The notes below the pieces were generated by a model, which saw nothing but the letters and a program-made list of their open reading frames with translations, did no database searches and was not told the DNA's origin. From UHGV virus genome UHGV-0036483: 54,587 bases of DNA; one strand, written 5' to 3'. The translations under genes and the position numbers were made by a program. The stretch is from a virus. Below are positions 7,185 to 8,089 of this stretch, one piece after another. The first letter of the stretch is position 1. The number at the start of each line of letters is the position of its first letter.

Positions 7185-7367
7185 ATGAAAAACGAAATTA
7201 AAGATCTGCAAATAGATATTCAGCGCGATGAGCATGATTTAGAGACTGTGCGACAAATACAGGCTTTCCACATGCGAGAATTGCTTGCACTTAAAGAGCT
7301 TGAAAGAAAGTTGGTGCAGGCAATATCTGATCGCAAAAGACTTGTTGCGCGTTACGGGGGCAAGTAA
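7185..7367 (+). CDS. hypothetical protein (60 aa)
   Basis: ORF track. Confidence 0.45.
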   Translation: MKNEIKDLQIDIQRDEHDLETVRQIQAFHMRELLALKELERKLVQAISDRKRLVARYGGK

Positions 7368-8089
7368 TGAATCTGGAATCTATTCTTAAATTCCACTTCC
7401 CAAAATCACCGCGTTTATCAGATGAAAGCCGGGGCACGTCACCGGATGCACTTAATACTACGGATGCACTAACTGCCGCAGGTATGGCGCAATCGCGCGT
7501 AGAGCTTGGTTATAGCGCTTTTTTGGGAAAGATGGAACTATCACAAGCCGAAAAACATAAGGCCGTAGTTTTGCTTACAGAGCGTTTAAGGGCTATGGCA
7601 AAAGATTATGAATACGTTATGGAACTGGACGAGGCCAAACGCAATGATCTCATTATTCTTGTTGCCGTTTTCGCGTTTCGGGATTATTGCCAAAGCGCCG
7701 CGACGGAAAAAACTTGTATGGAGTGCGGAGGATATAAATTTACGTTTGACGACTACGGAGAAAAACACCTTTGCAAAAAATGCAAGGGCCACGGGACAGT
7801 TCGCAATCATTGTAAACAATGCAAGGGTCGTGGCGAAGTACCGGATAAAGCAGCCAGTGAAGCGGCGGAAATGCCAGTGTTCAAAACGTGCCAGCATTGC
7901 GGCGGGCGCGGGTACTCGCGTTTCCCTGTAGATCTTGTACGGCAGGCGGTTAATCAGCTTGTTTTCCCGGTAAGCCGATCAACGTGGTGGAAGAAATACC
8001 GTGCTTTCTATGAAGACGCCATTGCCGAATTGTTCAAAGAAGAGGCGCGTGCTGATAACGAAATTAAACGAGTTACACGGGGTGAATGA
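7367..8089 (+). CDS. putative late-gene antiterminator (Q-like) with four CxxCxGxG zinc-finger motifs
   Basis: CMECGG, CKKCKGHG, CKQCKGRG, CQHCGGRG; position directly after ninG-rusA as for Q in lambdoid phages. Confidence 0.5.
   Translation: MNLESILKFHFPKSPRLSDESRGTSPDALNTTDALTAAGMAQSRVELGYSAFLGKMELSQAEKHKAVVLLTERLRAMAKDYEYVMELDEAKRNDLIILVAVFAFRDYCQSAATEKTCMECGGYKFTFDDYGEKHLCKKCKGHGTVRNHCKQCKGRGEVPDKAASEAAEMPVFKTCQHCGGRGYSRFPVDLVRQAVNQLVFPVSRSTWWKKYRAFYEDAIAELFKEEARADNEIKRVTRGE

Follow-up and report, generated by a model that had tools for sequence, protein, structure and literature searches.

The gene at 7367-8089 of the viral genome UHGV-0036483 (54,587 nucleotides [nt]; by the window we mean this whole stretch) raises two questions: what kind of protein with four cysteine knuckles occupies the place after ninG and rusA where lambdoid phages encode the antiterminator Q, and how such a protein could serve a late promoter lying 4.6 kb further on. 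A sequence-only reading had described it as a Q-like protein with four DnaJ-type CxxCxGxG motifs and had offered two options for it, namely, action from a distance or identity as another zinc-finger regulator. We found that the product is a genuine Qλ-family antiterminator by sequence, profile and predicted fold, and that it carries an insertion with a second pair of cysteine knuckles. This region of the window is 85-90% identical to the coliphages of the mEp021 group ("mEpimmI") and to phage MagusPhagus, and in this lineage a conserved control cassette, which occurs once in the window, stands before the holin gene and away from Q. Taking the model as a whole, it seems likely that Q acts in trans on this displaced cassette (12676-12759).

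A four-knuckle member of the Qλ family

The protein scored 104.1 bits (E=4.3e-30) against PF03589, the Qλ family of Pfam (PMC9388147), passing the gathering threshold of 26.7 bits, and its residues 1-238 matched positions 1-252 of the 253 in PHROG 127 ("anti-termination protein Q-like"; E=1.5e-78). The comparison with the Q families that the sequence-only reading had proposed, run here with Pfam, thus places it in Qλ, with no match at E<=1 to either Q21 (PF06530) or Q82 (PF06323) in the scan. In a phmmer search, two blocks of it, residues 1-114 and residues 148-238, aligned with λ Q of the PDB entries 7ubm and 7ubn (chain 7ubm_Q, E=4.1e-39), the λ zinc ligands C118, C121, C144 and C147 falling on C149, C152, C175 and C178 of the window protein. 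An AlphaFold model built from 23 homologues (mean predicted local distance difference test score [pLDDT] of 78.6, with residues 1-30 below 50) had λ Q chains as all of its top eight Foldseek matches in the PDB, with E values from 1e-13 (7ubn) to 4e-8 and target-normalised template modelling (TM) scores of 0.64-0.76, and the next match was at E=0.36. The description as Q-like is therefore correct along the whole protein: the homology to λ Q (about 40% identity, alignment A1) covers the N-terminal torus segment, the four-helix body with its helix-turn-helix (HTH), the zinc-ribbon arm with the same four cysteines, and the C-terminal helix.

Residues known to matter for λ Q are also preserved. Residues 1-44 of λ Q are disordered in the protein alone, and NusA induces them to form a torus at the RNA-exit channel (PMC9388147). 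Residues 1-44 of the window Q align with this segment, with M1, L3, E4, K8, K13, T24, D33 and G39 invariant among homologues, and the low-confidence N-terminus of the model fits the disorder described for λ Q. Substitution of G39, L58 or T206 impairs antitermination by λ Q (PMC9388147); the window protein has the same residues at these three positions and conservative replacements at those of V6 and L202. Both the N-terminal torus residues and the zinc ligands are invariant down to 36% identity.

Taken by itself, the protein is an ordinary Q, a name that some records already give it. Its counterpart in mEp021 (MH706966), gp37, is a "putative late gene regulator Q" of 240 amino acids (aa) with more than 93% nucleotide identity to the window gene, and the nearest database cluster (98% identical, 981 members) is named "antitermination protein [Escherichia coli]". 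Q was found in every mEpimmI genome examined. In the GenBank records of mEp010 (PP180001, locus L017, 1568-2296), mEp554 (PP180005, locus L019, 1567-2289) and mEp044 (PP180004, locus L020, 1799-2521), it is a "hypothetical protein" despite its clear PF03589 membership.

The four cysteine knuckles reported by the sequence-only reading are all present and invariant, with the correction that the complete CxxCxGxG motif is found in three of them (C136-K-K-C139-K-G-H-G, C149-K-Q-C152-K-G-R-G, and C175-Q-H-C178-G-G-R-G), the first being CxxCGG (C117-M-E-C120-G-G) and conserved in the homologues as CxxC only. All eight cysteines, together with G141, G154, G180 and G182, are invariant in 23 homologues with 36-98% identity; therefore, the four knuckles are not a chance occurrence. 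Knuckles 3 and 4 belong to the arm shared with λ Q. Knuckles 1 and 2, in contrast, lie in a 33-residue insertion (residues 115-147) that falls between λ residues 114 and 117, at the junction of body and arm. In the loading complex of λ Q, residues 110-112 and 117 touch the zinc-binding domain (ZBD) of the RNA polymerase β' subunit, and the arm contacts the Q-binding element (QBE), σ region 4 (σR4) and the β' ZBD (PMC9388147).

The insertion is present in 23 of the 23 Q homologues retrieved with a word index (from E. coli, Citrobacter, Serratia and Xenorhabdus), with C117, C120, C136, C139 and G141 invariant, a length that ranges from 33 to about 85 residues (alignment A1), and a loop of variable length separating knuckle 1 from knuckle 2. 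All 80 of the related viral loci compared below encode four or more C-x(1,2)-C knuckles. Among near-full-length representatives of clusters at 50% identity (n=55), at least 34 have the insertion and 8 have the two-knuckle pattern of λ; therefore, the four-knuckle form prevails in the family, of which λ Q is a reduced member. Knuckles 1 and 2 probably make up a second zinc site. Considering that these two knuckles are present or absent together in the family and that the equivalents of knuckles 3 and 4 bind one zinc in λ Q, a sequential pairing (1+2, 3+4) is favoured, while the sequence likeness of knuckle 1 to 4 and of knuckle 2 to 3 leaves room for a nested one.

The segment carrying the insertion (residues 115-148) is also a mosaic allele, with 49% nucleotide identity to mEp010 and 46% to MagusPhagus in a gene whose flanking parts are 85-95% identical (93-95% in the comparison with mEp010). 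The mEpimmI group has at least two insertion alleles in circulation, and their distribution does not follow that of the two -35 forms described for the cassette in the next section.

A conserved cassette next to the holin gene

The late control cassette begins 4587 nt past the Q stop and ends 20 nt before the holin ATG, with a ribosome-binding site (RBS) in between. All the elements that the sequence-only reading had noticed at 12676-12758 were found there, namely, TTGTAG, TAAAAT, AACAAT, the hairpin and the T-run (Table 1). The first two would form the late promoter, and the -10-like AACAAT, 7 nt (attacct) after the -10 and at about +1 to +6, would be the σ70-dependent pause element (SDPE). 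Between it and the hairpin (CCCGGCC-ccgcg-GGCCGGG) lies GCGAAATTGTAATTA, and the leader RNA has a predicted fold of -21.6 kcal/mol (z = -2.65). The layout is that of λ pR' (TTGACT, 17 nt including the QBE, TAAATT, tgactc, and AACGAT), with which it shares a geometry of a 17-nt spacer, a -10, 6-7 nt, AAC(A/G)AT, and a terminator. There are also differences: the candidate QBE of the window, AAACAAACAGAT, is unrelated in sequence to that of λ, and the terminator hairpin starts about 21 nt past the presumed start, whereas λ tR' is at +194. The terminator corresponds to TERM_5 (t5) of mEp021, and t5 is listed as a terminator shown by experiment (PMC11893012).

In a set of 24 mEpimmI phages and prophages, the cassette is essentially invariant from AAACAAA to the terminator stem, with variation in the terminator loop, in the -35 hexamer and in the open reading frame (ORF) upstream. 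In relatives with extra ORF insertions, the cassette still stands beside the holin gene. The -35 hexamer is TTGTAG, TTGTGG or TTGTAT in 16 of the 24 and TCGCGC or TCGCAC in the other 8, and neither this second form nor a sister clade described below has a recognisable -35 (loci listed for this variation: L010, L013, L014, L018, L024, L029, L030, and L033, with L006 at 13736-13741). A possible late promoter directly after Q (TAAGCT, 7 nt, AACGAT; 8094-8112) was rejected, since this stretch codes for part of the next ORF and lacks a terminator, and neither mEp021 nor the sister clade shares it.

The Q-dependent regulatory cassette has been defined as the Q gene plus an adjacent unit of pR', SDPE and terminator (PMC9388147). 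We compared the position of this unit by script at 80 viral loci, comprising 13 mEpimmI contigs and 67 IMG/VR contigs (L034-L100), with downstream sequence for 66 of the non-mEpimmI loci. In 13 of 13 mEpimmI loci, the next ORF starts -8 to +30 nt from the Q stop and the first cassette is found 4.06-6.26 kb downstream; among the named phages of the group, the distance from Q to the cassette is 1.9-6.0 kb. Outside the group, the script found a cassette (AAYRAT at the same spacing) 27-66 nt after the Q stop at 50 of the 66 loci, and 12 of the 16 that failed its filter were inspected by eye and had the cassette right after Q too. Hence, the unit is not adjacent to Q in the window or in any of the 13 group members and is adjacent at about 66 other loci. 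In the sister clade, whose Q is 49% identical to that of the window, Q is followed by 11 small ORFs and then by TATAAT-tccctc-AATAAT-...-terminator-holin. The separation of Q from its site is thus specific, in this sample, to the mEpimmI/mEp021 group and the sister clade, which confirms that, unlike in λ (about 80 nt between gene and cassette, against 4.6 kb in the window), Q is not adjacent to the late promoter and makes this a trait of the lineage.

In classical lambdoid prophages (L008 of Citrobacter, L015 of Serratia, L016 of Xenorhabdus and the 67 IMG/VR contigs), the four-knuckle Q proteins resemble that of the window in having the insertion with a CxxC...CxxCxG pair and a cassette of -10, pause element and terminator. 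They differ in the position of the cassette, 27-66 nt behind the Q stop, in its good -35, in insertions of up to about 85 residues, and in having only 31-43% identity to the window Q. Directly after its four-knuckle Q, the Serratia prophage has TTTACT-17-TAATTT-ctttct-AACGATGGGT-terminator and the Xenorhabdus prophage has TTGACA-17-CATCAT-tgctct-AACGATGGGTT-terminator. Since the site spacing in four-knuckle Q phages is that of λ (17 nt in the spacer, and 5-7 nt separating the -10 from the pause element), the insertion leaves the geometry of the site unchanged. Several unrelated four-knuckle Q prophages have in common a spacer, AAGTGGCGA(T/A), between the -35 and the -10 (L008 10765-10900, L016 1745-1790, and L039-L056). 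This shared spacer probably represents the QBE used by that subgroup of Q and has no relation to AAACAAACAGAT.

mEp021 has the same order of Q, small-ORF array and cassette as the window, its cassette being 97.9% identical and TERM_5 being annotated just before the holin gene, and the window evidently belongs to the same group of phages, but there are 8 intervening ORFs in mEp021 and 18 in the window. The paper on the mEpimmI phages describes an N-like antiterminator, Gp17, and three nut sites and refers to "Qλ-like" proteins in passing (PMC11893012); in a term search of its text, the expressions "late promoter" and "late gene" were never used.

Probable action on a displaced site and alternative explanations

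In the model that we consider likely, the HTH body and the zinc-ribbon arm of Q would bind, by homology to λ Q, a QBE within the late promoter, for which AAACAAACAGAT is the candidate. Q would engage an RNA polymerase paused, with σ70 retained, at the AACAAT just past the start, and its N-terminal 44 residues, refolding together with NusA, would make a torus on the RNA-exit channel. Travelling with the polymerase, Q would then allow it to pass the terminator (hairpin at about +21 to +39) and to reach the genes for the holin, the endolysin, the spanin and the structural proteins. The array genes are probably transcribed together with Q from the early operon, 3' of nutR2 and in dependence on the N-like Gp17, and the expression of Q itself would probably be Gp17-dependent and delayed-early, as in λ. 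From there, Q would work in trans on a site 2-6 kb off in the same genome. The sequence-only reading had presented action at a distance and a different zinc-finger regulator as the two options, and this is a false choice: the latter is rejected below, and Q, a DNA-binding factor free to diffuse, is active in trans in the usual reporter assays; therefore, the distance between gene and site is no mechanistic obstacle. Nor does a terminator so close to the start conflict with the mechanism, since RNA threads through the λ Q torus by 15-16 nt (PMC9388147).

Several observations weigh against this model. The -35 TTGTAG matches the consensus at 3 of 6 positions at the 17-nt spacing, a general promoter scan did not list the cassette, and both the sister clade and 8 of 24 relatives, a plaque-forming phage among them, lack the -35. 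Matches to the loose motif "-10, 5-8 nt, AAYRAT" number 9 in the window (12.3 expected) and those to TAACRATG number 10 (4.9 expected), neither count being significant alone; for this reason, we relied on position, the terminator, conservation and the comparison across phages. The terminator t5 was reported in the context of antitermination by the N-like Gp17, and early transcription may also pass it. Covariation between the variants of Q and those of the cassette is uninformative, the body of Q being near-invariant and the -35 variants being unlinked to the insertion alleles. Moreover, an 82-aa ORF of the array (10140-10388, plus strand) is identical at 58 of 82 positions to gp41 of mEp021, which was identified by mass spectrometry as a "virion structural protein" and called "mislocated" (PMC11893012), and a homolog of a virion protein is unexpected for an early gene.

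That the protein is not Q, the Q position being taken by another zinc-finger regulator or by a chaperone with a DnaJ-like zinc domain, is extremely improbable and is effectively refuted already. The likeness that suggests it is to the DnaJ cysteine-rich domain (PF00684), which also has repeated CxxCxGxG motifs, and the four knuckles of Q could bind two zinc ions; PF00684 did match Q with E=9e-6, and the NCBIfam models of DnaJ (TIGR02349) and anti-TRAP gave weak matches. The DnaJ scores are, however, under their cutoffs (26.3 bits against a gathering cutoff of 32.7 for PF00684, and 24.2 against 377 for TIGR02349), and λ Q itself has a similar weak DnaJ match. Q lacks the J domain (none at E<=1 in the Pfam scan), the G/F region and the C-terminal substrate domains of DnaJ, and no DnaJ chains were among the significant Foldseek matches of its model, whereas the homology to λ Q is full-length, cysteine-free regions included, and the fold search returned λ Q only. 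Zinc pairing in DnaJ is nested (1+4, 2+3). The DnaJ likeness of Q is thus at the level of the motif only, and a DnaJ or chaperone identity was rejected. The labels "DnaJ-type" and unusual cannot be kept either, since two of the motifs are the zinc ribbon of λ Q and most family members carry four.

Two further explanations accept the protein as Q. It is unlikely that the cassette is not its main target, either because the late genes are expressed mainly through Gp17 antitermination at t5, leaving Q redundant or vestigial, or because Q uses another, unrecognised site. The description of t5 within the Gp17 early antitermination system, a link between Q and cassette that is drawn from sequence comparison, and the name "hypothetical protein" in three GenBank records of the group would all suit such a reading, but the presence of Q throughout the group and the invariance of its zinc ligands and torus residues point to purifying selection. 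Furthermore, the window holds a single copy of the cassette core, which bears a promoter-proximal pause signature that, to our knowledge, is known only from Q systems and that also stands behind Q in about 66 other phage contigs. It is very unlikely that the cassette, at least in its variants without a -35, is a loading site for Q and not an autonomous promoter, with polymerase arriving from the early operon, σ70 re-binding the -10-like element from solution, and Q loading there. This would account for a -35 that is missing in a third of the relatives (8 of 24) and in the sister clade while TTTACA, TTGACA or TTTACT stands in the cassettes that adjoin Q in other phages; the array also runs into the cassette without an earlier strong terminator, and σ70 is reported to reach elongation complexes from solution in vivo (PMC4604602). 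Nevertheless, the pause element is preceded at 6-7 nt, as in λ pR', by a -10 close to consensus (TAAAAT, with TATAAT in the sister clade), which a pure elongation-pause site would not need. In addition, a polymerase modified by an N-type protein, such as λ N, suppresses pauses, and we know of no precedent for promoter-independent loading of Q. If it were true, this would be the first such Q switch, at the boundary of early and late genes.

Gene neighbourhood and implications

Q follows ninG and rusA, in agreement with the sequence-only reading and with the position of Q after the nin region in λ (Table 1). The 60-aa ORF immediately 5' of Q precedes it also in relatives, and the TGA of Q overlaps the ATG of the next ORF (ATGA). 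Further upstream, the mEp021 annotation has TERM_4 at the same position as the hairpin of the region at 5829-5986, and nutR2 is located downstream of the methyltransferase gene in the mEp021 group (PMC11893012). Position and sequence thus point to this region as the counterpart of nutR2/t4, which would place Q 3' of an N-type antitermination site.

Table 1. Features of the Q locus and the late control region (positions in the window)
Feature	Position	Strand	Description
nutR2/t4-like region	5829..5986	+	Intergenic, 5' of ninF/ninG/rusA/Q and after a DNA methyltransferase gene; terminator-like hairpin, boxA-like TGCTCTTTAA, boxB-like stem
ninG	6088-6783	+	PF05766, 3e-68; PHROG 171 and PHROG 34 cover ninG/rusA
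rusA	6780-7181	+	PF05866, 1e-15
60-aa ORF 5' of Q	7185..7367	+	Match to phrog_18514, function unknown; stop overlaps Q ATG (TAATG)
Q gene	7367..8089	+	240-aa Qλ-family transcription antiterminator; ATG start, TGA stop
Q residues 1-44	7367..7498	+	Equivalent of the λ Q segment that refolds with NusA into the RNA-exit-channel torus
Insertion with knuckles 1 and 2	7709..7810	+	Q residues 115-148, body/arm junction; putative second zinc site; gap in λ Q
Zinc-ribbon arm with knuckles 3 and 4	7811..7915	+	Q residues 149-183; residue-by-residue alignment with the λ Q arm
Accessory array	8086..12667	+	18 small ORFs of 58-121 aa, overlapping or nearly abutting; begins on the Q stop (ATGA)
Putative late promoter	12676..12704	+	Weak -35 TTGTAG (12676-12681), 17-nt spacer, -10 TAAAAT (12699-12704)
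Candidate Q-binding element	12687-12698	+	AAACAAACAGAT; invariant part of the spacer
Putative σ70-dependent pause element	12712..12717	+	AACAAT, -10-like, at about +1 to +6; attacct (7 nt) after the -10; AACGAT in λ
Intrinsic terminator	12732..12759	+	Hairpin 12732-12750 with 7-bp GC-rich stem and 5-nt loop; T-run; TERM_5/t5 of mEp021
Lysis cassette, first late genes	holin 12775-12975, endolysin 12976-13467, Rz-like spanin 13455-13925	+	PHROG 20, PHROG 7, PHROG 13

Between Q and the cassette we counted 18 small ORFs, one fewer than the approximately 19 of the sequence-only reading. All the gaps within this array are of 40 nt or less, the sole sizeable intergenic gap being 12668-12774. Its ORFs match only PHROGs of unknown function or have no match, and in relatives the array varies from 8 to 25 ORFs and from 1.9 to 6.3 kb. 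Because it begins on the Q stop and ends at the cassette, the array probably forms the distal end of the early right operon. No internal promoter/terminator cassette was found in 8086-12667, apart from a single ORF-internal hairpin that resembles a terminator. This hairpin (9696-9715, plus strand; AAGCGGG-ataaaa-CCCGCTT, then TTTTTG) lies 18 nt past the ATG of ORF 9678-9911 and may act as an attenuator within it or be due to chance. It was rejected as a second Q cassette, given its location inside an ORF with a good RBS and the lack of a -10 or a pause element.

Two other features of the array deserve mention. The second ORF after Q (8276-8623, plus strand; 115 aa from the ATG at 8276, with a good RBS) codes for a CENCDDDG ... 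CPRCGGRG pair (CxxC...CxxCGGRG) with weak, sub-threshold matches to the DnaJ motif, and is a second small zinc-knuckle protein near Q, of unknown function. The last two ORFs (12297-12494 and 12491-12667, plus strand) both match phrog_15318, which makes them tandem paralogues.

Kilobases of accessory genes also separate Q from the lysis cassette in Shiga toxin (Stx)-type lambdoid phages such as 933W. In those phages, pR' and tR' stay beside Q and the accessory genes are downstream of them, hence Q-dependent. In the window, by contrast, the accessory genes are upstream of the cassette, and the arrangement predicts that they are early and Q-independent, unlike the morons 3' of pR' in Stx phages.

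In reviews and structural papers, the Q switch consists of a Q gene and, directly beside it, a promoter-pause-terminator unit, and the mEpimmI layout departs from this description. The four-knuckle arm is a common but unstudied form of the Qλ family. λ Q, the sole member with solved structures (PDB 4MO1 and 7UBJ-7UBN), is the reduced form, most of its relatives have the extra pair beside the surface that touches the β' ZBD, and our literature searches turned up no structure or functional study of this second pair of cysteine knuckles. Finally, λ Q and P22 gp23 are reported to have a preference for action in cis (Echols 1976; Burt and Brammar 1982; and Riggs and Botstein 1987; cited in PMC3472691 and PMC13392384). 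The natural separations of 2-6 kb between Q and its site in a common group of gut coliphages would provide a test of how this cis preference of Q depends on distance.

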